From Mobula hypostoma (lineage: Eukaryota): DNA of 64,000 nucleotides. Both the position numbers and the translations under genes were made by a program. Positions 20,751 through 59,536 of this stretch are shown in pieces (position 1 is the first letter of the stretch; each line of letters starts with the position of its first letter). The notes beneath the pieces were generated by a model. The model made no database searches and had not been told where the DNA came from. It saw nothing but the letters and a program-made list of their open reading frames with translations. Where the stretch lies: the NCBI RefSeq assembly GCF_963921235.1, contig NC_086097.1, positions 122,948,001 through 123,012,000 on the forward strand. Direction: 5' to 3'.

Positions 20751-23700
20751 TGTTGCCTTCCGGGTGCCAGGGTCTGGGGTGTTTCTGACCAGGTGCATAA
20801 CATCCTGGGACAAGAGGGAAAGCAACCAGAAGTTGTGATACATGTTGGTACCAACAACATAGGCAGGAAGAGGGATCAGGTCCTGAAGTGTGAGTTTCGG
20901 GAACTAGGCAGAAGGCTGAAGAACAGGACCTCAAGAGTGGCGTTCTCAGGATTGCTGCCAGTGTTATGTGACAGTGATGGTAAGAATTGGAGGAGATGGC
21001 AATTGAATGCGTGGCTGAGGAGTTGGTGCAGGGAGCAGGGTTTTAGATTTTTGGATCATTGGGATCTCTTCTGGGGAAGGTGGGACCTGTACAGATTGGA
21101 TGGGTTGCACCTGAACTCGAGGGGGAGCAATATCTTTGCAGGTAGGTTTGCTAGCATGGTTCGGGAGGGTTTAAACTAATTTGCAAGGGGGATGGGACCC
21201 GGAGCGATAGAGCAGTGAAAGAAGTGCATGGAGTAAAGCCAGATCTAACATATAGAGAGACTTTGAGGAAAGAGAAGCAGAATAAACAGCATAAAGGTAG
21301 TAAGGTACAAGGGCTGAAGTGTGTGTACCTCAATGCAAGAAGCATCAGGAACAAAGGTGATGAACTCAGAGCTTGGATACATACATGGAATTATGATATA
21401 GTGGCCATTACATAGGCTTGGCTTGCACCAGGGCAGGAATGGATTCTCAATATTCCTGGATTTCAGTGCTTTAAAAGGGATAGAGAGGGGGGAAAAGGGG
21501 AGGAGGGGTGGCATTACTGGTCAGGGTTACTATTACAGCTACAGAAAGGGTGGGTAATGCATCAGGATCCTCTTTTGAATCAGTATGGGTGGAAGTCAGA
21601 AACAGGAAGGGAGCAGATACTCTATTGGGGATATTCTATAGACCCCCTGGTAGCAGCAGAGATACAGAGGAGCAGATTGGGAGGGAGATTTTGGAAAGGT
21701 GCAAAAATAACAGGGTTGTTATCATGGGTGACTTTAATTTCCCTAATATTGATTGGCACCTGATTAGTTCCAAGGGTTTAGATGGGGTTTGTTAAGCGTA
21801 TCCAGGATGGATTCCTGTCACAGTATGCGGACAGGCCGACTAGGGGGAATGCCATACTAGATCTAGTACTAGGTAATGAACCGGGTCAGGTCACAGATCT
21901 CTCAGTGGGTGAGCATCTGGGGGACAGTGACCACCGCTCCCTGGCCTTTAGCATTATCATGGAAAAGGATAGAATCAGAGAGGACAGGAAAATTGTTAAT
22001 TGGGGAAGGGCAAATTATGAGGCTATAAGGCTAGAACTTGCGGGTGTGAATTGGGATGATGTTTTTGCAAGGAAATATACTATGGAAATATGGTCGATGT
22101 TTAGAGATCTCTTGCAGGATGTTAGGGATAAATTTGTCCCGGTGAGGAAGATAAAGAATGGTAGGAGGTGGAAAATCTAGTCAGGTGGAAGAAGGCAGCA
22201 TACATGAGGTTTAGGAAGCAAGGATCAGATGGGTCTATTGAGGTATATAGGGAAGCAAGAAAGGAGCGTAAGAAGGTGCTGAGAAGAGCAAGAAGTGGGC
22301 ATGAGAAGGCCTTGGCAAATAGGGTAAAGGAAAACCCCAAGGCATTCTTCAATTATATGAAGAACAAAAGGATGACAGGAATAAAGGTAGGACCGATTAG
22401 AGATAAAGGTGGGAAGATGTGCCTGGGGGCTGTGGAAGTGAGTGAGGTCCTCAATAATTACTTCTCTTCGGTACTCACCAATGAGAGGGAACTTGATGAT
22501 GGTGAGGACAATATGAGTGAGGTTGATGTTCTGGAGCATGTTAATATTAAGGGAGAGGAGGTGTTGGAGTTGTTAAAATACATTAGGACGGATAAGTCCC
22601 TGGGGCCTGACGCAATATTCCCCAGGCTACTCCACAAGGCGAGGGAAGGAATTGCTGAGCCCCTGGCTCGGACCTTTATGTCCTCGTTGTCCACGGGAAT
22701 GGTACCGGAGGATTGGAGGGAGGCGAATGTGGTCCTTTAGTTCAAAAAAGGTAGTAGGGATAGTCCGGGTAATTACAGACCAGTGAGCCTTACGTGTGTG
22801 GTGGGAAAGCTGTTGGAAAAGATTCTTAGAGATAGGATCTATGGGCATTTAGAGAATCATGGTCTGATCAGGGACAGTCAGAATGGCTTTGTGAAGGGCA
22901 GATCGTGTCTAGTAAGCCTGATAGAGCTCTTTGAGGAGGTGACCAGGCATATAGATGAGGGTAGTGCAGTGGATGTGATCTACATGGATTTTAGTAAGGC
23001 ATTTGATAAGGTTCCACACGGTAGGCTTATTCAGAAAGTCAAAAAGCATGGGATCCAGGGAAGTTTGGGCAGGTGGATTCAGAATTGGCTTGCCTACAGA
23101 AGGCAGAGGGTCGTGGGGGTGAGAATACATTCAGATTGGAGGATCGTGACTAGTGGTGTCCCACAAGAATCTGTTCTGGGACCTCTACTTGTCGTGATTT
23201 TTAATTAACAACCTGGATGTGGGGGTAGAAGGGTGGGTTGGCAAGTTTGCAGACGACACAAAGGTTGGTGGTGTTGTAGACAGTGTAGAGGATTGTCGAA
23301 GATTGCAGAGAGACATTGATAGGATGCAGAAGTGGGCTGAGAAGTGGCAGATGGAGTTCAACCCAGAGAAGTGTGAGGTGGTACACTTTGGGAGGACAAA
23401 CTCCAAGGCAGAGTACAAAGTAAATGGCAGGATACTTGGTAGTGTGGAGGAGCAGAGGGATCTCGGGGTACATGTCCACAGATCCATGAAAGTTGCCTCA
23501 CAGGTAGACAGGGTAGTTAAGAAAGCTTATAGGGTGTTAGCTTTCATAAATCGAGGGATAGAGTTTAAGAGTCGCGATGTAATGATGCAGCTCTATAAAA
23601 CTCTGGTTAGGCCACACTTGGAGTATTGTGTCCAGTTCTGGTCACCTCACTATAGGAAGGATGTGGAAGCATTGAAAGGGTACAGAGGAGATTTACCAGA

Positions 23701-25437: not shown

Positions 25438-25989
25438 CACTAGTGACCATTTTATTAGGTACATCAGTACACCTGCTTGTTAATGCAAATATCTAATCAG
25501 CCAGTCATATGGTAGCAACTCATTGCATAAAAGCATACAGACATGGTCAAGACATTTAGTTGTTGTTCAGACCAAATATCAGAACAGGGAAGAAATGTGA
25601 TCTAAGTGACCTTGACCGACCGTGGAATGATTGTTGGTGCCAGAGTATCTCAGGAAACTGCTGATCTCCTGGGATTTTCAGGCACAACAGTCTCTAGAGT
25701 TTACAGAGAATAGTGTGAAAAACAAAAAAAAACACCCAGTGAGAGGCAGTTCTGTGAGCAAAAAATGCCTTGTTAATGAGAGATGACAGAGGAGAATATT
25801 CAGACTGGTTCAAGCTGACAGTAATTCAAATAACCATGCATTACAACGGTGGTGCGCAGAAGAGCATCTCAGAACACACAACAGGTTGAACCTGCATATG
25901 GATGGGCTACATCAGCGGAGACCACAAACATACACTCAGTAGACATTTTATTAGATATAGAGGGTACCTAATAAAGTGGCCATTGAGTG
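25438..25989 (+). mobile_element. Non-autonomous Tc1 deletion derivative
   Basis: Same TIR and N-terminal transposase as 3852 and 6329 copies; ends in a TIR-TIR hairpin at 25933-25989. Confidence 0.8.
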
Positions 25990-27100
25990 CGTTCAACACC
26001 ATCTGCCCTGCCCCACTGGGGGAGAAGCTGACAGCGATGCAGGTGGATGCTTTCCTGGTATCATGGATTCTTGATTACCCGACTGGCAGACCACAGTACA
26101 TGTGCTTGCAACACTGTGTGTCCGACAGAGTGATCAGCAGCACTGGGGCTCCACAGGGAACTGTCTTGTCTCCCTTTCTCTTCACCATTTACACCTCGGA
26201 CTTCAACTACTGCACAGAGTCTTGTCATCTTCAGAAGTTTTCTGATGACTCTGCCATAGTTGGATGCATCAGCAAAGGAGGTGAGGCTGAGTACAGGGCT
26301 ACGGTAGGAAACTTTGTCACATGGTGTGAGCAGAATTATCTGCAGCTTAATGTGAAAAACACTAAGGAGCTGGTGGTAGACCCGAGGAGAGCTAAGGTAC
26401 CGGTGACCCCTGTTTCCATCCAGAGTGTCAGTGTGGACATGGTGGAGGATTACAAATACCTAGGGATACGAATTGACAAACTGGACTGGTCAACGAACAC
26501 TGAGGCTGTCTACAAGAAGGGTCAGAGCCGTCTCTATTTCCTGAGGAGACTGAGGTCCTTTAACATCTACCGGACGATGCTGAGGATGTTCTACGAGTCT
26601 GTGGTGGCCAGTGCTATCATGTTTGTTGTTATGTGCTGGGGCAGCAGACTGAGGGTTGCAGACACCAGCAGAATCAACAGACTCATTTGTAAGGCCAGTG
26701 ATGTTGTGGGGATGGAACTGGACTCTCTGACGGTGGTGTCTGAAAAGAGGATGCTGTCCAAGTTGCATGCCATCTTGGACAATGTCTCCCATCCACTACA
26801 TAATGTACTGGTTGGGCACAGGAGTACATTCAGCCAGAGACTCATTCCACCGAGATGCAACACTGAGCGTCATAGGAAGTCATTCCTGCCTGTGGCCATC
26901 AAACTTTACAACTCCTCCCTTGGAGGGTCAGACACCCTGAGCCAATAGGCTGGTCCTGGACTTATTTCCTGGCATAATTTACATATTATTATTTAACAAT
27001 TTATGATTTTATTACTATTTAATTATTTATAGTGCAACTGTAACAAAAACCAATTTCTCCCGGGATCAATAAAGTATGACTATGACTATGACTATGACTA
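25988..27100 (+). mobile_element. Young 5'-truncated Rex1/Babar LINE
   Basis: Open frame SAFNT...GAPQGTVLSP...KFSDDS...RLYFLRRL...SFLPVAIKLYN to stop at 26948; AATAAA plus (ACTATG)n tail. Confidence 0.9.
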
Positions 27101-32517: not shown

Positions 32518-33243
32518 TCAGACAGACCAAGGAACTGATTGTTGACTTCAGGAAGGGGAAATCAGGGGAGTACACACCAGTCCTCACTGAGGGATCAGAG
32601 GTGGATAGGGTGAGCAGTTTCAAGTTCCTGGGTGTCAACCTCTCTGAAGATCTATCCTGAGCCCAACATTTTGATCCAATTATGAAACAGACACACCAGT
32701 GCCTATACTTCATTAGGAGTTTGAGGAGATTTGGCTTGTCACCAAAGACTCCAGCAAGTTTCTACATATGTACCATGAAGAGCATTCTGACTGGTTGCAT
32801 TGGCATCTGGTATAAAGGGGGCACTGTACAGATTCGAAAAAAGCTGCAAAAGCTAGTAAACCCAGTCATCTCCATCGTGGGCACAGCCTCCCCACCATCC
32901 AGGACATTTTCAAAAGGTGATGCCTCAAAAAGGTAGCATCCACCATTAAGGATCACTGCCACCCAGAACATGGCCGCTTCTCATTACTACCATCACAGGG
33001 GAGGTGCAGCAGCACGAAGACACACTCCCAATGATTTTGAAACAGCTTCTTCCCCTCTGCCATCAGATTTCTGAAGAGTCCATGAACCCTGAACACGACC
33101 TCACTATTGTGCTCCCTGTTTGTATTATTTATTTTTTATATTTCTTATCATAACTTATAGATTTTATGTGTTATACTGTACTGCTGCAGCAAAACAACAA
33201 ATTTCACAATATACGTCACTGATCATAAACCGGATTCTGATTC
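32518..33243 (+). mobile_element. Rex1/Babar LINE 3' fragment
   Basis: TKELIVDFR...FKFLGV...LYFIRSLRRFGLS; GATTCT tail. Confidence 0.75.
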
Positions 33244-33712
33244 ATAAGTTATGCCAGTGATAAGGAATAAAGTATTAGAGAATCTCAAGGTGGAAAAATC
33301 CCGGAGTCTGCAACCACGGCTTTTAAAGGAAGAGGCTGTGGTGACAGTGGGCTCATTTGTCAAAAAAATTCAAAACTCACTAAATTCTGGGAGGGTACCA
33401 ATAGATTGGAAAACAGCCAAGGAAGACAGAAGGCAGTGAACTCCCTGCCAATTAGTTTAAAATCTATCTTGGCAAGATGCTGTCAATAATCAAAGAGGAA
33501 ATACCTAATCTATTAGGAAACGCACAGATAATCAAACTTGCTCAGCATGACCTTATGAAAGGTAAATCACACTTAACAAATTGGCTTGAACTCTTCAAAG
33601 ATGTGTCAGGGAGGGTTGATAGAGGGGAACCTGGAGATGTGGGGTATTTAGAATTCTAAAAGGCATTTGATGAGCAGCCATATACGAGGTTGGTCCATAA
33701 AATTTGGAGGAA

Positions 33713-33939
33713 CACACACCAAATGCTGTAGGATCTCAGCAGGCCAGGCAGCATCTATGAAGAAGTATAGTCGATATTTCAGGACAAGACCCTTCATCAG
33801 GATATCCTGATGAAGAATCTCGGTCCGAAACATCGACTGTTCTCTTTTCCATAGGTGTTCCCTGGTCTGCTGAGTTCTTCCACCATTGTGTAGGCTTTGC
33901 TTGGATTTCCAGCATCTGCAGATTTTCTCTTGTTTAAGT
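33713..33939. mobile_element. Palindromic mini-Penelope with two back-to-back hammerhead motifs
   Basis: Centre CTTCATCAGGATATCCTGATGAAG (33792-33815); arms are opposite-orientation PLE 3' ends; TTTGGAGGAA at 33703-33712 and 33940-33949. Confidence 0.85.
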
Positions 33940-34106
33940 TTTGGAGGAAGTGTGTTAGCAGAACTTGAAAATTGGCAGCTGCATAGAAAACAGAGTTGTG
34001 ATAAATGGAAACAACAGGAATTCTGCAGATGCTGGAAATTCAAGCAACATACATCAAAGTTGCTGGTGAACGCAGCAGGCCAGGCAGCATCTATAGGAAG
34101 AGGCGC

Positions 34107-34142
34107 AGTCGACGTTTCAGGCCGAGACCCTTCGTCAGGACT
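34107..34142 (-). ncRNA. Minimal type I hammerhead ribozyme (left arm)
   Basis: Reverse complement of 37573-37608. Confidence 0.8.
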
Positions 34143-34430
34143 AACTGAAGGAAGAGTGAGTAAGGGATTTGAAAGCTGGAGGGGGAGGGGGAGATGCAAA
34201 ATGATAGGAGAAGACAGGAGGGGGAGGGATGGAGCCGAGAGCTGGACAGGTGATAGGCAGAAGGGGATACGAGAGGATCATGGGACAGGAGGTCCAGGAA
34301 GAAAGACGGGGGGGGGGGTGACCCAGAGGATGGGCAAGAGGTATATTCAGAGGGACAGAGGGAGAAAAAGGAGAGTGAGAGAAAGAATGTGTGCATGAGT
34401 AACAGATGGGGTACGAGGGGGAGGTGGGGC

Positions 34431-35603
34431 CTAGCGGAAGTTAGAGAAGTCAATGTTCATGCCATCAGGTTGGAGGCTACCCAGACGGAATATAAGGTGT
34501 TGTTCCTCCAACCTGAGTGTGGCTTCATCTTTACAGTAGAGGAGGCCGTGGATAGACATGTCAGAATGGGAATGGGATGTGGAATTAAAATGTGTGGCCA
34601 CTGGGAGATCCTGCTTTCTCTGGCGGACAGAGCGTAGATGTTCAGCAAAGCGGTCTCCCAGTCTGCGTCGGGTCTCACCAATATATAAAAGGCCACATCG
34701 GGAGCACCGGACGCAGTATATCACCCCAGTCGACTCACAGGTGAAGTGATGCCTCACCTGGAAGGACTGTTTGGGGCCCTGAATGGTGGTAAGGGAGGAA
34801 GTGTAAGGGCATGTGTAGCACTTGTTCCGCTTACACGGATAAGTGCCAGGAGGGAGATCAGTGGGGAGGGATGGGGGGGACGAATGGACAAGGGAGTTGT
34901 GTAGGGAGCGATCCCTGCGGAATGCAGAGAGAGGCGGGGAGGGAAAGATATGCTTAGTGGTGGGATCCCGTTGGAGGTGGCGGAAGTTACGGAGAATAAT
35001 ATGTTGGACCCGGAGGCTGGTGGGGTGGTAGGTGAGGACCAGGGGAACCCTATTCCTAGTGGGGTGGTGGGAGGATGGAGTGAGAGCAGATGTACGTGAA
35101 ATGGGGGAGATGCGTTTAAGAGCAGAGTTGATAGTGGAGGAAGGGAAGCCCCTTTCTTTAAAAAATGAAGACATCTCCCTCGTCCTAGAATGAAAAGCCT
35201 CATCCTGAGAGCAGATGCGGCGGAGACGGAGGAATTGCGAGAAGGGGATGGCGTTTTTGCAAGAGACAGGGTGAGAAGAGGAATAGTCCAGATAGTTGTG
35301 AGAGTCAGTAGGCTTATAGTAGACATCAGTGGATAAGCTGTCTCCAGAGACAGAGACAGAAAGATCTAGAAAGGGGAGGGAGGTGTCAGAAATGGACCAG
35401 GTAAACTTGAGGGCAGGGTGAAAGTTGGAGGCAAAGTTAATAAAGTTAACGAGTTCTGCATGCGTGCAGGAAGCAGCGCCAATGCAGTCGTCGATGTAGC
35501 GAAGGAAAAGTGGGGGACAGATACCAGAATAGGCACGGAACATAGATTGTTCCACAAACCCAACAAAAAGGCAGGCATAGCTAGGACCCATACGGGTGCC
35601 CAT
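34431..35603 (-). CDS. PLE RT C-terminal half plus GIY-YIG endonuclease (inverted, 5'-truncated copy)
   Basis: 390-aa translation identical to the C-terminus of the + copy. Confidence 0.85.
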   Translation of the reverse strand: MGTRMGPSYACLFVGFVEQSMFRAYSGICPPLFLRYIDDCIGAASCTHAELVNFINFASNFHPALKFTWSISDTSLPFLDLSVSVSGDSLSTDVYYKPTDSHNYLDYSSSHPVSCKNAIPFSQFLRLRRICSQDEAFHSRTREMSSFFKERGFPSSTINSALKRISPISRTSALTPSSHHPTRNRVPLVLTYHPTSLRVQHIILRNFRHLQRDPTTKHIFPSPPLSAFRRDRSLHNSLVHSSPPSLPTDLPPGTYPCKRNKCYTCPYTSSLTTIQGPKQSFQVRHHFTCESTGVIYCVRCSRCGLLYIGETRRRLGDRFAEHLRSVRQRKQDLPVATHFNSTSHSHSDMSIHGLLYCKDEATLRLEEQHLIFRLGSLQPDGMNIDFSNFR

Positions 35604-35632
35604 AGCTACACCTTTAGTTTGGAGGAAATGGG

Positions 35633-37277
35633 CTTTATCCGCTCAGGGGATCTCCCATCCACTGCTACCAACCTTATAGTTCCCACATCCCGCACTTCCC
35701 GTTTCTACCTCCTACCCAAGATCCACAAACCTGCCTGTCCTGGCCGACCTATTGTCTCAGCTTGCTCCTGCCCCACCGAACTCGTTTCTGCATACCTCGA
35801 CACTGTTTTATCACCCCTTGTTCAATCCCTTCCGACCTATGTTCGTGACACTTCTCACGCTCTTAAACTTTTCGATGATTTTAAGTTCCCTGGCCCCCAC
35901 CGCTTTATTTTCACCTTGGATGTCCAGTCCCTATATACTTCCATCCCCCATCAGGAAGGTCTCAAAGCTCTACGCTTCTTTTTGGATTCCAGACCTAATC
36001 AGTTCCCCTCTACCACCACTCTGCTCCGTCTAGCAGAATTAGTCCTTACTCTTAATAATTTCTCCTTTTGCTCCTCCCATTTCCTCCAAACTAAAGGTGT
36101 AGCTATGGGCACCCGTATGGGTCCTAGCTATGCCTGCCTTTTTGTTGGGTTTGTGGAACAATCTATGTTCCGTGCCTATTCTGGTATCTGTCCCCCACTT
36201 TTCCTTCGCTACATCGACGACTGCATTGGCGCTGCTTCCTGCACGCATGCAGAACTCGTTAACTTTATTAACTTTGCCTCCAACTTTCACCCTGCCCTCA
36301 AGTTTACCTGGTCCATTTCTGACACCTCCCTCCCCTTTCTAGATCTTTCTGTCTCTGTCTCTGGAGACAGCTTATCCACTGATGTCTACTATAAGCCTAC
36401 TGACTCTCACAACTATCTGGACTATTCCTCTTCTCACCCTGTCTCTTGCAAAAACGCCATCCCCTTCTCGCAATTCCTCCGTCTCCGCCGCATCTGCTCT
36501 CAGGATGAGGCTTTTCATTCTAGGACGAGGGAGATGTCTTCATTTTTTAAAGAAAGGGGCTTCCCTTCCTCCACTATCAACTCTGCTCTTAAACGCATCT
36601 CCCCCATTTCACGTACATCTGCTCTCACTCCATCCTCCCACCACCCCACTAGGAATAGGGTTCCCCTGGTCCTCACCTACCACCCCACCAGCCTCCGGGT
36701 CCAACATATTATTCTCCGTAACTTCCGCCACCTCCAACGGGATCCCACCACTAAGCATATCTTTCCCTCCCCGCCTCTCTCTGCATTCCGCAGGGATCGC
36801 TCCCTACACAACTCCCTTGTCCATTCGTCCCCCCCATCCCTCCCCACTGATCTCCCTCCTGGCACTTATCCGTGTAAGCGGAACAAGTGCTACACATGCC
36901 CTTACACTTCCTCCCTTACCACCATTCAGGGCCCCAAACAGTCCTTCCAGGTGAGGCATCACTTCACCTGTGAGTCGACTGGGGTGATATACTGCGTCCG
37001 GTGCTCCCGATGTGGCCTTTTATATATTGGTGAGACCCGACGCAGACTGGGAGACCGCTTTGCTGAACATCTACGCTCTGTCCGCCAGAGAAAGCAGGAT
37101 CTCCCAGTGGCCACACATTTTAATTCCACATCCCATTCCCATTCTGACATGTCTATCCACGGCCTCCTCTACTGTAAAGATGAAGCCACACTCAGGTTGG
37201 AGGAACAACACCTTATATTCCGTCTGGGTAGCCTCCAACCTGATGGCATGAACATTGACTTCTCTAACTTCCGCTAG
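35633..37277 (+). CDS. PLE reverse transcriptase plus GIY-YIG endonuclease (5'-truncated, uninterrupted frame)
   Basis: LPKIHK, GRPIVS, LDVQSLYTSIP, GVAMGT, RYIDD, FLD, Cys linker PCKRNKCYTC, VIYCVRC..C...YIGET.R.L..RF.EH. Confidence 0.93.
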
Positions 37278-37572
37278 GCCCCACCTCCCCCTCGTACCCC
37301 ATCTGTTACTCTTTTTAATGCACACATTCTTTCTCTCACTCTCCTTTTTCTCCCTCTGTCCCTCTGAATATACCTCTTGCCCATCCTCTGGGTCACCCGC
37401 CCCCCCCGTCTTTCTTCCCGGACCTCCTGTCCCATGATCCTCTCGTATCCCCTTCTGCCTATCACCTGTCCAGCTCTCGGCTCCATCCCTTCCCCTCCTG
37501 TCTTCTCCTATCATTTTGCATCTCCCCCTCCCCCTCCAGCTTTCAAATCCCTTACTCACTCTTCCTTCAGTT

Positions 37573-37608
37573 AGTCCTGACGAAGGGTCTCGGCCTGAAA
37601 CGTCGACT
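37573..37608 (+). ncRNA. Minimal type I hammerhead ribozyme (right arm)
   Basis: AGTC-CTGACGA-AGG(GTCTCGG)CCT-GAAA-CGTC-GACT: helix I AGTC/GACT, conserved core, helix II, palindromic ACGT in place of helix III; predicted cleavage after C37604. Confidence 0.82.
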
Positions 37609-37859
37609 GCGCCTCTTCCTATAGATGCTGCCTGGCCTGCTGCGTTCACCAGCAACTTTGATGTATGTTGTGATAAATGGGCCCTTTTTAGGCTGGAGAG
37701 ATGTAACTAACCATGTGTCCCTGGGATCAGTTCTAGGTCTTCAATTGTTTACTGACTTCCTTAATGACATGGAAGAGGGAAGGAATTGGAAGACTTCCAA
37801 GGTTGTTGAGAGAAAAAAAATGGTGAAAGGGTATGTTACAATGAGAACATTGTGATTCA

Positions 37860-38976
37860 CCAGGATATACTTTGACAAGCCTCCGTAGATGCACAGTGGA
37901 GAGTATCCTAATTGGTTGCATCACAACCTGGTATAGAAGCACCAAGGTCCTGGAATGGAAAAGTTTACAGAAAATGATGGATTCAGCCTAGTCCATCACA
38001 AACAAAAACTTTCCTACCTTACTTATTTTCTGCCCATTATGCCACTGGCGTTTAGGGCAGCAATAAAGGTCCACCTCCACCTCTGACGGCATTCAGGGCT
38101 TCCTTCATCATGTCAGTAGCTTCCTCTCAGTCATGCAAGTCCCAGCTGGAGACACAAGAATACTGTCACACTCAGATACAGAAGGATTCTTCATTGTTGT
38201 TTCAGTAACAATTTTGTTTTCCTAATCAGAGGTAGTAGCCCTGAGTGGAACACCTGAACCTGGAGGACCAGTGGACCACTCTTAGTCTGGCCTCTACCCT
38301 GTGACCTGTTTGATATGGGTCACTCTACCAAAAGCCAAAGCATAAAGCCCTGACTCCAGCCAACATAGGTCTCCGGGTCATTGCAGCACACAGGTCTCCC
38401 AACCCTACGACAAGGTTGTGGTCCCGTTGAAGGGCCCTTCCAATCATGGAGTGCATTTACATGGAATGCTGTCACAAGAAAGCAGCATCCACCATCAAAG
38501 ATCCCCACCGTCCAGGTCATGCTCTCTTTTCACTACTAACATAAAGCAGGAGGTTCAGGAGCCTCGAGTCCCACACTCTTCAGGAACAGTTATTACCTCC
38601 TCAATCACCATGGATAACTTCATTCACCAAGACTCTGAACTGAATCTATGACATACAAATTCACTTTCAAAAACTCTTTTGCAGTTCATGTACTCAGTAC
38701 TATTCAGTTTATCGTCCTTTGCACAATAGTTGTTCGTTGGCCTTCGTCTGTTTATGTACTGTATTTCATAAAATTCTATTTGAACACAGAAAAGTAAAGC
38801 GAGTACCAGTTATGCTGACCTTTCAATCTACTCTTAAGATCAATCTAACCTTTCCCTGCTACATAACCTTCTATTTTTCTATTGTTTTTTTCCTGAAATG
38901 CCTGAAAGATAGTGAATCTCAAGGTAGTATATGGTAATAAAAATGTATTCTGATATTAAATTTTCATTGAACTTTG
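37860..38976 (+). mobile_element. Rex1/Babar 3' fragment with nested inserts
   Basis: RCTVESILIGCIT.WY motif; GAACTTT tail. Confidence 0.7.
38017..38437 (-). mobile_element. Non-autonomous RTE/RTEX-type element
   Basis: Interrupts the Rex1 copy; minus-strand end GCCCTAAACGCCAGTGGCATAATGGGCAG...AAGTAAG and 5' part resemble RTE termini (from recall). Confidence 0.5.
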
Positions 38977-39001
38977 AATAGATTGAGTAATTGGCAAAAA
39001 A

Positions 39002-41587
39002 AAATCAAACCATTAGAAGGAGATGACATAGGGTCTGAAGGTGTTGAAGACCCTGGTGAGAGTTGTATACAAACACCCCCCCACCCCCGCCACCCAAACA
39101 GTAGTAAGGATGTGGCCTACGAATTGCAGTGGGAGATAGGAAATGTATGCCAAAAGGGCAATGTTACAATAGTCAAGGGGAACTTCAATATGCAGACCGA
39201 TAGAGAAAATCAGGTTGGATCTGGATTGCAGGAGGGGGATTTTCTAGAGTGACTATGAGATGGCTTTTTAGAGCAGCTCACGGTTGAGCCCACTAGAGGA
39301 TCAGCTATTCTGGATTGGGTGTTGTGCAATGAACCAGAATTGATTAGAGACCTTAAGGTAAAAGAACTCTTAGGGGCAGGTGGTCATAATATGATCAAAT
39401 TCACCCTGAAATTTGAGAAACAGAAGCTAAAGTCTGATGCATCAGTATTACAGTGGATTAAAGGGAATTACAGAGGCATGAGAGAGGAGTTGTCCAGAGC
39501 TGATTGGAAAAGAAGACTGGCAGAGATGATGGCAGAGCAGCAATAGCTGGAATTTCTGGAAGCAATTCAGAAGGCACAGAATATAAACATCTCAAAGAGG
39601 AAGAAGTATTCTAAAGGAAAGATGACACAGCTGTGGCTATCTAGAGAAGTCAAAGCCAACAAAAAAGCCAAAGAGAGGGCATATAATAGACCAAAAAATA
39701 GTGGGAAGTTAGAGGACTGGGAAGCTTTTAAAATCCAATAGAAGGCAATTAAAAAGGCCATTAAGAAGGAAAAGATGGAATACAAAAGTAAGCTAATCAA
39801 TATTATTAAAGAGGATACCAAACATTTCTTCAGATACATAAAGTGTAAAAGAGAGGTGAGAGTGGATATCGGACAGCTGGAAAACAATGCTGGAGAGGTA
39901 GTAATGGAGACAACAAAATGACGGACAGACTGAATAAGTATTTTGCATCAGTCATCACTGTGGAAGACACTAGCAGTATTGTGGAAATTCCAGGAGTCGG
40001 GTTTATGAAGTGTGTGAAGTTACCATTACTAAAGAGAAGGTTCTTGGGAATCTGAAAGGTCCGAAGATAGGTAAGTCACCTGGACCACGTGGTGTACACC
40101 CCATAGTTCTGAAAGAGGTGGCTGAGAGATAGTGGAGGCATTAGTAATGATCTTTCAAAAATCACTAGATTCTGGAATGGTCTAGAAGACTGGAAAATTG
40201 CAAATGTCACTCCACTCTTCAAGAAGGGAGAGAGGCAGAAGAAATGAAACTATAGGCCAGTTAGTCTGACCTCAGTGTTGGAGTTGATTATTAAGGATGA
40301 GGTCTCAGGGCACTTGGAGGCACACGATAAAATAGACAATTGTCAGTATAGTTTCCTCAAGGAAAAATCTTGCCTGACAAATCTGTTGGAATTTTTTGAA
40401 GTAACAAGCAGAATAGACAAAGGAGAATTGGTTGATGTTGTGTATTTGGATTTTCAGAAGGCCTTTGACAAACGCCACACATGAGGCTGTTTAACAAACT
40501 TCAAGCCCATGGTTTTACAGGAAAGATTCTGGCATGGATAAAGCAGTGGCTGATTGGCAGGGAGCCTTTTCTGGCTGGCTGCCGGTGACCACTGGTGTTT
40601 CACAGGGGTCTGTGTTGGGACCAATTCTTTTTACGTTATATGACAATGATTTGAATGATGGAATTAATAGCTTTGTTGCAAAGTTTGCACATGATATGAA
40701 GATAGGTGGAGGGGCAGGTGGTTTTGAGGAAGAAGAACTTAGACAGACTAGGAGAAAGGGCAAAATAATGGCAGATGGAATATAGTGTTGTGAAGTGTAT
40801 GGTCATGTACTTTGGTAGAAGAAATGAAAGGGTTGGCTATTTTCTAAATGAAAAGAAAATACAAAATTCTGAGGCGCAAAGGGATTTGGGAGTCCTTGTG
40901 CAGGATTCTGTAAAGGTTAATTTGCAGGTTGAGTCTGTAGTGAGGAAGGCAAATGTGATGTTAGCATTTATTTCAAGAGGACTAGAATATAAAGACAATA
41001 TAAAGACAAGAATGTTGAGACTTCATAAAGCACTGGTGAGGCCTCACCTGGAGTATTGTGTGTAATTTTGGGCCCCTTATCTTAGAAAGGATATCCTGAA
41101 ACGGGAGAGGGTTCAAAGGAGGTTCACAAAAATGATTCCAGAATTGAATGGTTTGTCATATGAAGAACGTTTGATGCCTTTGGGCCTGAATTTGCAGGAA
41201 TTCAGAAGAATGAGGGGTGACCTCATTGAAATCTATCGAATGGTGAAAGGCCTTGATAGAGTAGATGTGGAGAGGATGCTTCCTATGGTGGGAAAATCTA
41301 AGACCAGAGGACACAGCATCAGAGTAGAGGGGTATCCTTTCAGAACGGAGATAAGGAGTAATTTCTTTAGCCAGAGAGTGGTGAATCTGTGGAATTCTTT
41401 GCCATTAGCAGCTGTGGAGGCCAAATCTTTATGTATATGTAAGGCAGAGGTTGATAGATTCTTGACTGGCCAGGGCACGAAGGGTTTTTGGGGAAAAGGC
41501 AAGAGATTGGGGGTGAGAGGAAAATTGGATCAGCCATGGTGGGCCAAATGGCCTAATTCTGCTCCTATATCTATGGACTTATGGTCT
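39002..41587 (+). mobile_element. CR1 LINE ORF2 (APE-RT), decayed
   Basis: GNFN, LDFQKAFD, QGSVLGP, KFAHD, RPHLEYC, FSQRVV; CTTATGG-type tail. Confidence 0.88.
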
Positions 41588-42399
41588 AAAAATTGGCGAA
41601 TTGCATTTAATGTGAGGAAGTGTAAAATCATGCATTTTGGTAAGAGGAATCTAAAAGGAGATTATTATCTAACTGGAAATGACTGAAATTCAGAGTGGTG
41701 TTCTAGTATGGAGATCACAAAAAGTTAGCGGGCAGGTCCAACAAATAGTTAAAAAGGCAGACTGCATTTTGGCCTCAATTATGAAGAGATTGGAGTTTAA
41801 GAGCATTACAACCATATGGGTTGTATTTTTGAGGTCATACAGGGAATACTGTGCATGGTTGTGGATCCATGCCTAAAAAGGATATACTAGAAATGGAGGC
41901 AGTCAAAACAAAAATTGTCTGGCTAATTCTTGGGATGATAGGGTTGTCCTATCAAGGCAGTCTTGATTGTTTGACTAGAAGGCCATAACACATAGGAGCA
42001 GAATTAGGTCATTGGGCCTATTGCTCGGGATTGTACTTTAGAAGTTTAGAAAAAAGAAGGATGAACAGGTTCTAAATATAAACTGCTGAGAAGTACAGAT
42101 ATTGAAAGGTTTTAACAAGTGGGTGATTCATCAACAAACAAATACAGATGCAAAATAAGGGTTTGGTCATTTAAATATTCTTCTCTCAAGGTGGTGAATC
42201 TTTGGTATTTTCTGTTCTAAGGTTGGTGAGTCCAGGTCATCAGATATATGTAAGGTGGAGATAATTGAAACATTGAAATATTGAATAATTGATGGTTATT
42301 AGGAAGAGCACACTAGAAGAATCGGCCAGCATAGAGATCTGTCACATTCACACTGAATGGCAGGGCAGGTATGAGGGGCCTGGTGACATGGCTCGCTCC

Positions 42400-45127
42400 A
42401 GACTGGCCGGATACTTCGGTAAGAACCAAGGGCTTCATGAGATACAGGATAAAGCAGACTGCTGATTCAGAGAAGGTAAAAGGTGGGATCTGTATTACAT
42501 AATAAGCTCTTTGTGGTGCTTGGATGCAGTGGTCTTGTCACACTCGTGTTCCCCTGACCGGGATCATCTAACGATTAAGTGCTGATCATTCGACCTACCA
42601 AGAGAGTTCTCCTCTGTGATCCTGACTGCCGTTTACATACCGCCAAAGGCAGGTATTAACCAGCCACTCGAGGTACTGAGTGTCACCATCAGCAAACAAG
42701 AAACAGCCTACCCCAACACTTTCCAAATCAGTGTCAGGGACTTCAGTTAGGCTTGTTTGAAGAAATCTTTGCTCAATTATCATCAACCTATAAACTGCAG
42801 CACCGGGGGATCCAATACACTTGACCAATGCTTTATTACAATTCAGGATGCCTACCGTTCTCTGCCGAGACTGCATTTCAGAAAATCTGTTTGCTTGGCT
42901 GTCCTCCTCCGACTTGCATAGAGGTAGAGGTTGAAGAGCGTGGCTCCAGAGATAAGGGCAACAACGAGTGGTCGCGGGAGGCGGAGAGGCAGCTATTGGA
43001 TTGCTTCTAGTTGGTGGTCTGGGCTGTGTTCACGAGCTATTCAGAGGATCTGATGAATACACCACAGTTGTCACGGACTTTATAAAAACGGTCATAGACG
43101 AGTGTTTCCCCACAAAATCATCCAATGTCTTCCCCGAACAGAAACCCTGGATGAACCATGAGATCCACATTCTGCTGAGGGCCAGATCAATTGGATTCAG
43201 GCCTGGTGACCAAGTAAAATACAAGAAGTCCAGGTGCAATCTCCGGAAAAGCCACCTCATGTGCCAAGAGGCATTTCTTGACCAAACTTGAATCACTGAA
43301 GGATGCTGGACAACTGTGGCAGGGTTTTGCATTACATCATACAAATAAAAACCAAGCAACATAGGTGACAAAAAGGCTTTGCTTCCAGATGAGCTCAGTG
43401 CCTTTTACACTCACTTTGACGGTCAAAATATGGAGGCACCTTCGTGAACTCGCGCAGTCCCCAATTACCCTGGATTTCAGTCTCTGAAGCCGATGTGAGA
43501 GCATCCCTCAGGAGAGTGAGCCTGTGGAAAGCGTCCAGATGGGGTACCCAGCCAAGTTCTAAAGTCCTGTGCTGAACAACTGACTGGAGCGTTCACTGGC
43601 ATCTTCAACACCTTGCTTCAGCAGTCTGACATTCCCACCTGCTTCAAGCAGGCTTCAATTATACCGGTGCCTAAGAAAAACGTGGTAACCTTCCTCAATG
43701 ACAATCATCCAATAGCACCAACATCCACTGTGATGAAATGCTTTGAAAGGTTGGTGATGAAACATACCAACTCCTGCCTGAGAAGTGATTTGGATCTGCA
43801 ACTTGGATTTGCCTACTGTCACAACAGGTCAAGAGTAGATGCCATTTCATTGCCACTTCACTCAACATCTAGGCAGCAAAAATACACCTCAGGATGCTCT
43901 TCTTCAACTACAACCTAGCATTCAATACTACCATCGCCTCAAAGCTTCAAGACCTTAGCCTCAATACCTCCTTGTGCAAATGGATCCTTGATTTCCTCAC
44001 TTGCAGACCCTGGTCAGTTTGGATTGGCAAAAACATCTCCTCCACAATCTCCATCAGCACAGGTGCACCACAAGACTGTGCACTTAGCCCTCTGCTCTAC
44101 TTGTTTTATACTTCTGTGAGGATAAACATAAGCTCCAATGTCATATTTAAGTGTGCTGACACCACACTCATTGGCCAAAGCAAAGGAGGTGGTGAATTAG
44201 CATACAGAAGGGAGACTGAAGACCTGGCTGAGTGGTGCCACAAGAACAACAACCTCTCACTCAATGTCAGCAAGACCAAGGAGTTGTGTGCTGAATTCAG
44301 GAGGAGGAAACCAGAGATCTATGAGTCCATCTTCATTGGGGGATCAGAGGTGGAGAAGGTCAGCAACTTTAAATTCCTCAATGTTCTCATTTCAGAGGAT
44401 CTGTCCTGGATCCAGCAAGTAAGTGACATTGTGAAGAAAGCACTAATAGTGCCTCTTCTTTCTTAGAGTTTGTGAAGATTCAGCATGGCATCTGAAACTT
44501 CGTCAAACGTCTATAGATGTGGTGGAGAGTGTTTTGACTGATTGTATCACACCCTGCTATGGAAACACCAATGCCCTTCAGTGGAAAAGCCTACAAGAAG
44601 TAGTGGATTCAGCCCAGTCCATCACGGGTAAAACCCTCCCCACCACTGAGCACATCTACATGGAGCACTGTTGCAAGAAAGCAACAACCATCATCGACGA
44701 CCCACCATCCCGGCCATGCTCTCTTCTCGCTGCTGCCATCAGGAAGAAGGTACAGGAGACTCAGGACCCACACCACCAGGTTCAGGGACAGTTGTTACCC
44801 TTCAAACATCATGCTCTTGAACCATAGGAGATATCCTCACTCAACTTCACTTGCCACATCAGTGAACTGTGCCCACTGCCTATGGACTCACTCTCAATTA
44901 CTCTTCATCTCATGTTCTCAATATTTATTGCTTATTTATTATTATATTTTTATTTGCAGAGTTTGTTGTCTTTTCCACACTGATTGTTTGCCCATCCTGT
45001 TCGGCATGGACTCTCTTACTTCTATTGTGTTTCTTGTATTTACTGTGATTGCCCACAAGAAAATGAATCACAGGATTGCATGTGGTGACATATATGGACT
45101 TAGATAATAAACTTACTTTGAACTTTG
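42400..45127 (+). mobile_element. Near full-ORF decayed Rex1/Babar LINE
   Basis: LPREFSSVILTAVYIPP (APE), QKPWM, IIPVPKK, MKCFERLV, GAPQ..LSP; GAACTTT tail. Confidence 0.85.
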
Positions 45128-47029
45128 GTAGTTTATTCCTGCACCTATTTACTTGTGTTCATTTTAAGTTAATCAGAAATTAGGTGAAGCAGAAGTTATT
45201 GGTGCACATTTATGGAATTAAAATGTAACAATTTTCAATGGCACACTGGGAAATAACATAACAAATTGCAAAATAATATTCTGATAGGTTCCAGCATTTG
45301 CAGTCTCCCTTGCATCTCCCTTGCATTTTAGTCCAGGCTTAGCGATCGGATTTAAATGAGACACACATAAATTTAAAGCCCATGGTAATAGAAGATAGAT
45401 GGGGAGTACAACACAGTACAGGCGCTCCAACCGATAATATTGTGCTGACCTTTTAACCTACTCTAAGATCAATCTAACCCACGTAGCCCTCCATTCTTCT
45501 ATTGTCCATGTGCCTATCTACACACCTCTCTAATGTCCCCAGTGAATCTGCCCCCAGCTGCGTGTTCCACACACCTACCACTCTCTATGTAAAAAAAAAC
45601 TATCTCTGACAACCCCCCGTACTTTCCTTCCAATACCTTAAGTTAGGCCCCTTTTTATTAGCCATTTCCACCTTAGGAGAAAGGTCTCAGGCTGTCCATT
45701 CACCCTATGCCTCTTACCATCTTGTACACCTCTATCAAGTCACTTCTTACCCTCCTTTTCTCCACAGAGAAAAGCCCCAGCTCTCTCAACCTATCCTCAA
45801 CTTCTTGTATCCTGCCACATAGAGCACAGCTATTAGGTACAATCGTCAACTATTAGGTAGAACACCAGATGAGTAACCTGGAGCGTTAATCCAGATACTG
45901 ATTGGATACTGATCCAAAGATATATATTCAAGTCCTAAATTTAAATACAATTAATTAGATGGTCCAAAATCTTTAAAAAAAAAGATTGCAGCAGTAATGG
46001 AAGCTATGTATCTACTAGACAGTTGTAACAGACCCATCTGCTTCGCAATTGTACTGCTCACTAATCTGCCAACCTGGTTTAGTCTAGATAACTACAGAGC
46101 CAGAACAGTGTAGTTGTATTGTAAAAGCTCTGGCAAACCTCTTGTATACAAGATGACAGAGGCATAGATTGAGTTGACAGCCTGAGACTTTTTCCCAGGA
46201 CAGAAGTGAATAATATGAGGGGGCTGAATTTTCAGGTGATTGGACGAAAGTATAAGGGGAATGCCAGATGTATGATTTTGACAGAGAGAGTGGTGAGTAC
46301 GTGGAACACCCTGCCAGGGGTGATGGTAGAAACAGATATATTAGGGACATTTAAGAAACTCATATAGAAATGCACATGGATATCGAAAAATGGAGGACTA
46401 TGGAGGAGAAAAGGTTTATATTAATTTTAAGAGTGGGTTAAAAGGTGAGCACAGCTTCATAGTTTGCAGGGTTTGAACTATGTTTTATATTCTATAAACC
46501 AGCCAGTTCATTGGCAAAGTAAGGACTTTCGATGTTGCTGTAAATTGAAAAAGTAATTCTACTATCAGAAGCAAACGCAAGTTTGGATTTGGTGAAATTT
46601 ATTGAATTGGACATTAAAACTGCAGTAACCACAACTCTACCACCTTCATATTCTTATCTAAACTTCAGAAGTTGGGGTGAGGTGGTGGGTCTGGTATGTT
46701 GACAGAGATCCTCCTCTTCCCTGTGCGGTGTGGTAGCATAATGCTTTACAGCTATCTCTACGCTCAGGCTTCAATTCCCACCACTCTCTGTAAGGAACAA
46801 AGGTTTCCTCTGGGTGCTCTGATTTCCTCCCACATTCCAAAAGACATCTGGGTTAGGGTTGGTGAAACGTGGGGTGGCTATGTTGGCGTTGGAAGCGTGG
46901 CGACACTTGTGAAGGCTTGCCCCAACACATCCACGGGCGGTGTTGGTCGCTGACACAAACAATGCGTATTTCAATACTTCCATGACCATGTGACAAATAA
47001 AGTTAATCCAGTCATTCCTTGTCACCTTC

Positions 47030-47655
47030 GCTGAACACCTTTGCTCTGTCTGTCACAAAAGATAGTCATACATTTTAATTCTAATCCCCATTCCTGGATC
47101 GACATGTGGCCCATGATCTCCTCTATTGCCATGATGAGGCCACTCTCAGGTTGCAGGAGCAACACCTCCAATTCTACCTAGATAGCCTCCAATCTAATGG
47201 CATGAATATCGATTTGTATAACTTCCAGTAGATTCCCACCACCACCCCCCAGCCTTCTTCCTTTCTCCATTCCCCATTCTGGCTCCCCTCTTACCCCTTC
47301 TCTTCTGTCCTGCCCACCACCTCCCTCTGGTACCCCTCCTCCTCACCTTTCTCCCATGGTCCACTCTCCTCTCCTATCAGACTTCTTTATCTTCAGCGCT
47401 ACACCTCTTCCACCTATCACCTCCCAGCTTCTTAGTTCATTTCTCCTCCCCCATCTCCCCATCTACCCACCTCACTCCTCACCTAGTCCCACCCATCACC
47501 TTCCAGTTTGTAATCCTTCCCCTCCTCCCACCTTATTCTGGCTTCTTTCATCCTTCTTTCCCGTCCTGATGAAGGGCTGCAGCCCAAAACGTTGACTCCC
47601 CATAGATGCTGCCTGTGCTGCTGAGTTCCTCCAATATTTGCTGTGTGTTACTCCA
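47030..47655 (+). mobile_element. Old Penelope 3' end with mutated hammerhead
   Basis: YCHDEATLRLQEQHL...; GTCCTGATGAAGGGCTGCAGCCCAAAACGTTGAC at 47563-47596. Confidence 0.8.
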
Positions 47656-48713
47656 ATCTTCTCTAACTCTGGTTCACTGTGCAGTGTAAATTTCCAGACG
47701 AACTATTGGCATGAACCTTAACTTGTCTTACAGGATAGATGCGGAGTTGCTTTATCTCCCGGCTGGCCTGTTCAGGAACAGGGTAACAGACAAAATGAGT
47801 GGCAGGCCATTTAGGACGAAAAGGGAGCGAGGAGAAAGAAACAAAATACCATTTTTCACCAGTCTTACTCATGGAATATTGTAATTGACTGATCACTTGG
47901 GTTTGTGCATACACAATCTTCACTTACTCAAAGTTTTAATTAATTTCAGCACATCAGCAGCAATATTTGTTCCTGTTCTCAGCTGCCTTGAGCTCAATAC
48001 TCCATGCATACCAAAGGTACTAACTGTTTTTTTCTTCCTCTCTTTCTCTCACCTCCCTCTCTCTCACACACACACACATATTATTAAAACAAAGTTTGCA
48101 GCTGACCCATCAGAATGGGGGCGGGGTTATATGCACGGAAAAGCAAATCACGGAACAGTAATTTATTCATGTAGTCCCACAGGACATGAATTATTTATGA
48201 GACTCCTGCCCTGTTCACTGCGACAGTAAGCATAATGCAGGTGACCTTCTTGCTAACCAGACAATGTGAAATCAAAAGTCCCATTGACACGTTTCAAGGA
48301 AACATTATGATCTCCGAACTGCAAGTAATCTGGGTCATGCTGACTGATCTGCTGGTACAAATCGAAGTATCACAGCAGCAGGTTAGAAGAGATGGTAGCA
48401 ACTCCTTAGAGTTCTGGGATTCAGTTTTGCTAAACCAAATTATTTTTCAGATTACTGCAATAATCTTTTTTCCAACATATGGCCATATAAAAATCAGACA
48501 GATTTATTTTGCACTTCTATTGTCAGCCAGCCAACTTGCTTTAATTTGAAATTTCAGCACCTCATCTATGCAGAAAGCTTGTGGAATTTAGTTCAATACC
48601 AATCCAATTAACCTTTATCAAGTGAACCAATCATGGTTTTGGACAAAATGAATGCTTCACTTTCTGTTTCTTTAATCAGAATGAACTATTAGAGTGATAG
48701 TGTCATAGAACTA

Positions 48714-49500
48714 CACTCAGTGGCTACTTTATTAGATACAGAGGGAACCTAATAAAGTGGCCACTGACTGTACAATATGTTTGTGTCTTCTGCAGCTGCA
48801 GCCCATCCACTTCAAGGATCAACGTGTTGTGCATTCAGAGATGCTCTTCTACACACCACCGTTGTGACGCCTCGTTACTTGAGATACTGTCGTCTTCCTG
48901 TCGGCTTGAAACAGCCCATCCTTCTGTCCTGACATCCCTCAATACCAAGGCATTTTCACCCACAGAATGTTTTTTTTTGTCCTTTGCACCATTCTCCATA
49001 AATACATAAGAACATAAGAAATAGGAGCAGGAGTTGGCCATCTGGCCTGTGGAGCCTGCTCCACCATTCAATAAGATCATCACTGATCTGGCCATGGACT
49101 CATCTCCACCTACCTGGCTTTTCACCATAACACTTAATTCCCCCACTATGCAAAAATCTATCCAACCTTGTCTTAAATATATTTATATTTACTGAGGTAG
49201 CATCCATTGCTTCAGTGGGCAGAGAATTCCAGAGATTCACTAGACACAGATACTAGAGACTGTGTGTGAAAATCCCAAGAAATCAGCAGTTTCTGAGTTA
49301 CCGAACCACACTGTCTGGCTCCAACAATCACTCCGTGGTCAAAATCACTTCTTGCCCATTCTGATGTTCTAAACAACACTGAACCTCTTGACCATGTCTG
49401 CATGCTTTATCCACAGAGATGCTGCCACATGATTGGCTGCTTCAATATTTACATTAAGCAACAGGTGTACAGGTGTACCTAATGAAGTGGCCACTGAGTG
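48714..49500 (-). mobile_element. Non-autonomous Tc1 deletion derivative with a nested CR1 3' end (~49005-49245)
   Basis: TIR hairpin at 48714-48770; SDFDHGVIVGAR; ends GTACCTAATGAAGTGGCCACTGAGTG. Confidence 0.8.
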
Positions 49501-59010: not shown

Positions 59011-59414
59011 TAAAGAGCCGACAGAGGTTCAGAAGATAGAATAAGCAGCCAGTATCTTTATCTCAGGGTCAAAATGTCAAATACTAGAAGGTATGCATGT
59101 ACTTAAGGTGAGAGAGTGTAAGTTCAAAGGTGATATTCAGGACAGGTACAGTGTTTTACCCAGTGAGTGGAGGGTGCCTGCAATGCACTGCCTGGGAGGG
59201 TAGTGGAGGTAATTATGATAGAGGTGTTTAATAGGCTCTTGGGCAGGCACATAAGTGTGAAGAGAAGAGAGGGATATGGATATTGTGCAGGCAGAGTGAT
59301 TATTTTAGTTAGGCATTTAATTATAAGTTTAATTAGTTCAACACAACATCGTGGGCTGAAGCACCTGCTCCTGTAATGTGCTGTTCTATATTCTATGTTG
59401 GCTTCAGGACAGGC

Positions 59415-59536
59415 TAAGTCCTGATGAAAGGTATCAGCCTGATATGTCCATAGATGCTGCCTGACCCGCTGAGTTCCTCCAGCATTTTGCGTGCGCTGCT
59501 CTGGATTTCCAGTATTTGCAGATTCTCTTGTGTTTA
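59415..59536 (+). mobile_element. Solo Penelope terminal fragment
   Basis: AGTCCTGATGA...ATAGATGCTGCCTGACC...CCAGTATTTGCAGATTCTCTTGTGTTT. Confidence 0.7.

Follow-up and report, generated by a model that had tools for sequence, protein, structure and literature searches.

A small palindromic insert made of two hammerhead-bearing Penelope-like element ends is probably an old, minimal two-armed insertion

Head-to-head insertions and hammerhead-bearing elements in the literature

Rotifer Penelopes have been reported to carry an inverted pLTR, a one-sided tail of 31 bp, a target site duplication (TSD) of 8-10 bp and palindromes at their head-to-head junctions; that palindromes are so abundant where pLTRs are inverted led to the proposal of self-priming (PMC3846280). 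Head-to-head inverted pLTRs with junction palindromes, a one-sided tail and a TSD have also been described as general features of Penelope-like elements (PLEs) (PMC8557442). Such junctions may arise by self-priming on an antisense template or by extension from both nicked strands. For the Poseidon element PAc of Anolis carolinensis, two reverse-transcription start sites are described, one for the tailed and one for the tail-less end; cleavage and extension take place on both target strands, and insertion in vitro does not need ribozyme cleavage. The description does not extend to how a head-to-head junction forms (PMC11167929).

The window (the whole 64,000-nucleotide stretch of Mobula hypostoma DNA analysed) contains a 227-bp insert that resembles Pen2a_Av and Pen2/Pen3a of Adineta vaga in its head-to-head inverted pLTRs, its junction palindrome, its one-sided tail of 30-40 nt and its TSD around the unit, and that differs from the Adineta vaga Penelopes in having neither ORF nor direct pLTR, in a junction without spacer or overlap, and in a TSD of probably 15 bp as opposed to 8-10 (PMC3846280). 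Of the features expected of inverted-pLTR insertions of EN+ PLEs, pLTR homology, head-to-head arms with a palindrome, a one-sided tail and a TSD were found. With PAc the insert shares tailed and tail-less ends, and extension of both strands would offer a route to two arms.

The motifs on the two arms resemble the minimal type I hammerheads of metazoan PLEs in their CUGAUGA and GAAA boxes, in an extra nucleotide before stem II, in the absence of a real helix III and in their occurrence as opposite-strand pairs, but the published pairs are about 100-700 bp apart, whereas the cores of the insert are 6 nt apart and its motifs are decayed (PMC4209133). Minimal hammerheads are described there as inactive as monomers and of low activity as dimers. 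Non-LTR retrozymes consist of head-to-tail tandem units whose same-strand ribozymes release circles (PMC7229834; bioRxiv 10.64898/2026.07.22.740005); like them, the insert is short, non-coding, derived from a PLE pLTR and hammerhead-bearing, and unlike them it comprises just one inverted pair, in which each strand carries a single ribozyme. Since it has no tandem, same-strand ribozymes, the insert falls outside the definition of a retrozyme. The original prediction had offered a self-propagating, retrozyme-like family as one of two possible origins; this finds no support, with ribozymes that are on opposite strands, damaged and sequestered, and with no abundant shared junction in the contigs.

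MITEs derive from DNA transposons and have, like a cut-and-paste transposon, terminal inverted repeats that match between the two ends. The insert was rejected as a MITE: its ends are unequal (the tail is one-sided) and both are retroelement pLTR sequence, and the likeness is in shape only. The same prediction had recognized retroelement ends behind a MITE-like appearance, and correctly, for both arms align with the pLTR of a neighbouring PLE. MITE-like hairpins in such genomes should thus be regarded with caution, as they can be retroelement scraps. Among the literature matches listed, no ribozyme-only palindromic PLE family was found, which is weak evidence of absence, most subscription papers and Repbase being outside its scope. 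The head-to-head mode of PLE insertion has already been published, and the insert is probably no new self-spreading ribozyme element; it is a tidy minimal case of a known insertion pattern that is mechanistically unexplained.

Anatomy of the insert and its insertion site

The features of the locus are as follows (coordinates within the window, strand, description).

33411..33702, plus: host sequence on the left flank, a decayed LINE reverse-transcriptase fragment (tblastn E 1.6e-14 with the frame at 22741-23205)
33698..33712, plus: left TSD, 15 bp, with an exact 10-bp core at 33703-33712; its last 2 nt also match the family end
33713..33803, minus: left arm, a tail-less PLE pLTR end whose 5' truncation lies 3 nt short of the hammerhead core on the upstream side; 79-84% identical to the neighbouring PLE's pLTR
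33768..33803, minus: minimal-hammerhead motif, core 33800-33777; stem I with 2 of 4 pairs, stem II with 4 of 5; triplet AUC; 15.2-16.2 still self-complementary
33792..33815, no strand: perfect 24-bp palindrome; arm junction between 33803 and 33804, without spacer
33804..33896, plus: right arm, a PLE pLTR end; its 5' truncation and that of the left arm fall on one template position; 78% identical over 135 columns to the neighbour's tailed end
33804..33839, plus: minimal-hammerhead motif, core 33807-33830; stem I with 2 of 4 pairs, stem II with 4 of 5; triplet AUC; 15.2-16.2 self-complementarity lost
33897..33935, plus: one-sided tail, about 39 nt, with no left mirror; family loose ends at 33897 and 33935-33936
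33935..33949, plus: right TSD, 13/15 identical to the left; exact core at 33940-33949
33950..34008, plus: host sequence on the right flank, the same LINE remnant continued up to the neighbouring PLE's TSD; aligns in order with paralogues in the window
34009..37670, no strand: neighbouring young two-armed PLE (RT + GIY-YIG), a separate insertion 60 bp to the right of the insert, used as a comparator

An identical 10-mer, TTTGGAGGAA, stands at 33703-33712 and 33940-33949 and bounds an interior of 227 bp (33713-33939), in agreement with the extent predicted (33703..33949). The predicted palindrome of 24 bp at 33792-33815 is perfect, and is the longer of only two perfect palindromes of at least 16 bp in the 64-kb window. 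A single occurrence of the pattern CATCAGGA-N(0-10)-TCCTGATG was found in the window, and none in 100 shuffles. Both strands of the insert fold much better than shuffled sequence (z = -10.3 and -10.2 for the two strands). The insert has no ORF, nothing remaining beyond the two pLTR ends, and the tail, as had been predicted, is confined to the right side, the left side having no mirror of it.

About ten further pLTR ends within the window can be aligned with the two arms, and the arms are 78-84% identical to the pLTR of the neighbouring PLE; on this sequence likeness, they are identified as the hammerhead-bearing pLTR end of a Penelope-like element. Perfection is confined to the centre, the arms differing at 21 of 89 aligned columns. 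At 20 of these 21 mismatches one arm carries the family-majority (read-majority) letter, with the private letters divided between right and left (11 and 9), in a comparison that used the 25 arm positions present in the 40 difference rows listed of 194; this indicates that the arms decayed independently from one sequence. The two arms started out alike when they were inserted, each having decayed by about 10-12% since then.

The exact 10-bp duplication that had been proposed as the TSD is present on both sides, and is probably the core of a longer one, since the match extends to 15 bp with 2 mismatches (33698-33712 and 33935-33949). When random positions were paired about 200,000 times and a slack of 3 nt was allowed, 18 pairs gave an exact match of 10 and 22 a match of 13/15, so that a TSD-like match arises by chance at a rate of about 1e-4. 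Given a duplication of 15 bp and a tailed family end at 33935-33936, the true length of the insert is probably about 222-224 bp. The TSD 10-mer (33940-33949) is also found at 35618-35627, inside the ORF of the neighbouring PLE and 5 nt from that element's inversion junction; the recurrence is probably due to chance, but could reflect annealing to nearby host DNA.

The insert and the neighbouring PLE both interrupt one decayed LINE reverse-transcriptase remnant (33411..34008), which we take to be CR1-like. When the insert and one TSD copy are removed, the LINE flanks align in order with paralogues in the window; at the TSD the flank is about 9-14 nt shorter than in two of the four paralogues of the same type, the other two aligning too poorly for comparison. 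No empty site, with a single copy of the duplicated word, was found among the matches listed, and the insert is present at the orthologous left junction in all four sequencing runs examined; the TSD is therefore supported by the match of its two copies and not by an uninterrupted allele, which, like the shorter flank, counts against this reading of the site.

These four runs (organisms A, B, D and H) were taken from 24 listed, of which 20 contain part of the stretch, and their contigs were aligned to 33560-34008 at 80% likeness, yielding 32,543-49,013 aligned contigs per run, mostly from other family members. In each run, one contig continues from the left flank through the TSD and on for 38 nt into the insert, with 0, 3, 17 and 16 differences in 191 nt; we read these contigs as orthologues. 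The presence of the insert at the orthologous site in four runs, bearing four organism labels, indicates that it is old and fixed, predating a split of about 8-9%.

The same contigs delimit the ends of the family. The commonest loose ends coincide with the two ends of the insert, at 33711 (tail-less; 985, 981, 869 and 666 contigs in the four runs) and at 33935-33936 (tailed; 2182+943, 2232+940, 1661+659 and 1448+604 contigs). That the insert ends on the two commonest termini of its family is as predicted by two reverse-transcription start sites that define the tail, such as those described for PAc (PMC11167929).

Mode of insertion and the symmetric centre

We consider the insert to be an old, dead, minimal two-armed PLE insertion, an extreme truncation product, with a probability of about 0.78. 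Such an origin had been proposed as the other of the two possibilities, and it fits everything tested and matches the anatomy published for head-to-head PLE insertions (PMC3846280, PMC8557442). By analogy with the elements described there, a single old insertion event by an endonuclease-bearing PLE would have begun with a GIY-YIG endonuclease nicking the dead LINE with a stagger of about 15 bp. Two arms would then have been copied in opposite orientations from the pLTR part of the element RNA, one from the tailed start site and the other from the tail-less start site, and both would have stopped after about 90-130 nt, just past the hammerhead motif. The arms may have been joined head to head by two primings meeting or by a self-priming fold-back. 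The nicking, the two start sites and the manner of joining are modelled on the literature.

Two features of the centre bear on the joining of the arms. Counted from the CUGAUGA core, the junction is 3 nt upstream and falls within the 4-nt 5' strand of stem I, by one base, so that the predicted fusion exactly at the 5' edge of the ribozyme is accurate to within one base. Furthermore, both arms stop at the same base, and the centre is exactly symmetric and without spacer. A same-base, spacer-less junction is unlike what independent truncations would predict, and counts against the truncation reading; at the arms' overall mismatch of 24%, the chance of a perfect 12-bp arm is about 4% by our own arithmetic. 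Both arms have a symmetric A at 33803/33804, where other copies in the window have G. One simple account is that a blunt join made a central CpG and both bases then decayed, as suggested by the same double change in the left arm at 33775-33776, where the reads mostly have CG; alternatively, the two symmetric central bases may be non-templated. A template-encoded fold-back at the inverted match CAG-TC-CTG of the pLTR was rejected, as the centre that it predicts is 4 nt shorter than that observed. The junction is also ruled out as a ribozyme cut site, the triplet being about 30 nt downstream on each arm.

The symmetric centre might instead record an RNA whose end is fixed at the edge of the ribozyme and from which such palindromes arise repeatedly, a reading that we regard as doubtful. 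The fixed end would be the 5' end of a short pLTR-derived RNA, possibly generated at a 3' splice site: the junction is 1 nt from a possible 3' splice site, and four of the five independent full pLTR copies in the window have a pyrimidine-rich stretch that finishes with AG just before TCCTGA or a variant of it. The intron of Drosophila virilis Penelope extends to the 5' end of helix I (PMC4209133). The splice site is a lead only, since stem I accounts for the AG just as well and pyrimidines abound throughout the region. If a fixed end did exist, PLE protein would repeatedly make ribozyme-only palindromes of fixed size from a short RNA. As to how PLE arms come to be joined head to head, a genome with very many dated copies would permit a statistical test from junction positions, for which one locus is insufficient.

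Other two-armed arrangements in the window have different junctions. The neighbouring PLE shares the layout of the insert but not its junction: its arms are 99.4% alike over 1595 bp, its tail is on the left only, its TSD is 14 bp (33995-34008 and 37667-37680), and its junction, at 35632/35633, is asymmetric, with an unmatched middle of 443 nt. It has intact minimal hammerheads and long open RT-EN frames, the ORF matching RVT_1 (E 1.5e-5) and GIY-YIG (E 5e-4), in both cases below the Pfam curated cut-offs. Contigs of organisms B and H continue for 233-234 letters past 34008, which suggests that the neighbouring insertion is absent there. A second-family pair at 14243-14713 has arms that are 72% alike, each with a hammerhead-like core, and a middle of 202 nt; a TSD was not found for this pair. 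The middle encodes a peptide that is presumably endonuclease-tail-like. Thus, three two-armed PLE arrangements in 64 kb have three different middles, of 0, 202 and 443 nt. At 59401-59536, a tailed pLTR end starts right at the 5' edge of the ribozyme and is preceded by an inverted stub of itself, 7-9 nt long, with a 7-nt loop between them and no TSD seen; this is possibly a second truncation at the ribozyme's 5' edge.

Alternative explanations, ribozyme motifs and related sequences

The insert could belong to a small, old, non-autonomous palindromic family, in which a pre-formed hairpin was transcribed and re-inserted by PLE protein in trans; we consider this improbable. A single master copy would account for the symmetric centre once, and PLE pLTRs can be mobilised in trans with cargo (PMC3846280). 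Contig depth at 33804 is 2318, 1729, 945 and 764 in the four runs, which is 1.2-1.6% of the depth at 33784 (in the left ribozyme) and 3.1-6.5% of that at 33816, and is an upper bound on the contigs that cross the centre because single arms ending there are also counted. This depth far exceeds that of a single contig (about 6-16), and would be compatible with near-collinear copies numbering some hundreds at most. Contig depth is not copy number; siblings of the same age would fall near the 80% cut-off, and the alignment would miss an old family near 78-80% identity.

Among the pieces and joints listed, crossings of the centre are few and varied. Three of the 32 pieces listed (165,233 further) bridge it with at least 31 letters on both sides: the orthologue in organism B (33736-33923, 3 differences in 188 nt) and two non-orthologous pieces, which favour a small family in that they exist but carry 5 and 8 gap letters. 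Similarly, a centre shorter by 1 nt recurs in all four runs (3, 4, 3 and 1 contigs), but the cross-centre joints, 4 among the 15 listed of 371, have different end-points and at most seven contigs per run. The other 11 of the 15 joints (from 33711-33722 to 33897-33904, on opposite strands) were rejected as fold-backs, being ordinary tailed ends on a palindromic reference. The letters that distinguish the arms are rare among the contigs, 93% of which differ at 33784 and 97% at 33883 in X1, for example, and a hairpin of 100 kcal/mol would be expected to hide the pLTR structures bound by the protein. The low depth at the centre and the differing junctions across it argue against an abundant or young family with the junction of the insert. 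If a small family did exist, such palindromes would be re-mobilised as non-autonomous elements.

It is very unlikely that the insert goes back to a longer two-armed insertion that subsequently lost its middle, long inverted repeats being unstable. The neighbouring PLE shows that kilobase-long two-armed insertions with the same ends exist here, and microhomology-mediated deletions of Penelope copies have been reported (PMC3846280). Nevertheless, organism B's orthologous contig already has the two arms joined at the centre, and a later deletion gives no reason for an exactly symmetric, spacer-less centre, and no direct repeat remains at the arm junction.

The motifs on the arms are those of damaged ribozymes. 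A ribozyme motif had been predicted on each strand, and the CUGAUGA and GAAA boxes, the extra base before stem II and the NUH triplet are indeed intact on both, but the stems are damaged and there is no Rfam match. On each arm stem I retains 2 of 4 pairs and stem II has one mismatch, so that the intact stems of a minimal hammerhead were not found, and the plus-strand motif has also lost the self-complementarity of helix III (15.2-16.2), which the minus-strand motif keeps; the two motifs of the neighbouring PLE, in contrast, retain every pair. Any transcript through the insert carries one motif plus the antisense of the other, and read-through RNA is predicted to fold into one long hairpin that would hide the catalytic core, with a probability of an unpaired core in the full transcript of about 1e-13 for either strand. 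With no ORF, with both ribozymes damaged and, according to the folding model, sequestered in the long hairpin, the element is evidently dead. At E values up to 1, Rfam yielded no hammerhead match in the window, not even to the neighbour's intact motifs, and only seven unrelated weak matches; the label 'hammerhead' therefore rests on the published description of the minimal motif.

A functional self-cleaving or circle-forming RNA, retrozyme-like, on one or both strands would explain the intact boxes and a central 24 bp that is better preserved than the remaining arms, but is scarcely credible given the broken stems, the predicted burial of the core and the published account of minimal hammerheads as requiring a same-strand partner and cleaving poorly (PMC4209133).

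Neither the head-to-head nor the single-arm patterns had any match in collections of viral and prokaryote sequences, which is no surprise for animal DNA. A metagenome scan for closely spaced head-to-head cores found 15 loci, none of the insert's family; 11 were dropped as lacking hammerhead cores, and four were kept by eye, with one substitution permitted in a GAAA box. These four have minimal hammerheads on both arms (L001 555-684, L007 568-681, L014 536-698 and L002 553-678) and are probably DNA of host animals. L001, L007 and L014, which are 74-85% alike, belong to one family, their centres measuring 14, 24 and 8 nt, and L002 is a separate family with a centre of 6 nt; symmetry, exact or approximate, is seen in three of the four centres. 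As the pattern admitted short middles only, it says nothing about the frequency of such hairpins, but the loci show that head-to-head hammerhead hairpins occur repeatedly in unrelated families and that members of one family can have different centres. If either a fixed RNA end or re-mobilisation were real, the process would be shared by animals as distant as the source animal and the hosts of L001, L002, L007 and L014. Among the loci without hammerhead cores, three groups of palindromic repeats share a centre within each group (L003/L008/L013, L004/L011/L015 and L010/L012); these are probably bacterial intergenic repeats.

Two short hairpins in the window, at 48709-48775 and 25928-25994, match the Rfam family mir-9256 weakly, below the gathering score, and are presumably the ends of a small DNA transposon. 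A tRNA-like match at the gathering threshold (29 bits), at 427-489 on the minus strand, is likely to be the head of a SINE.
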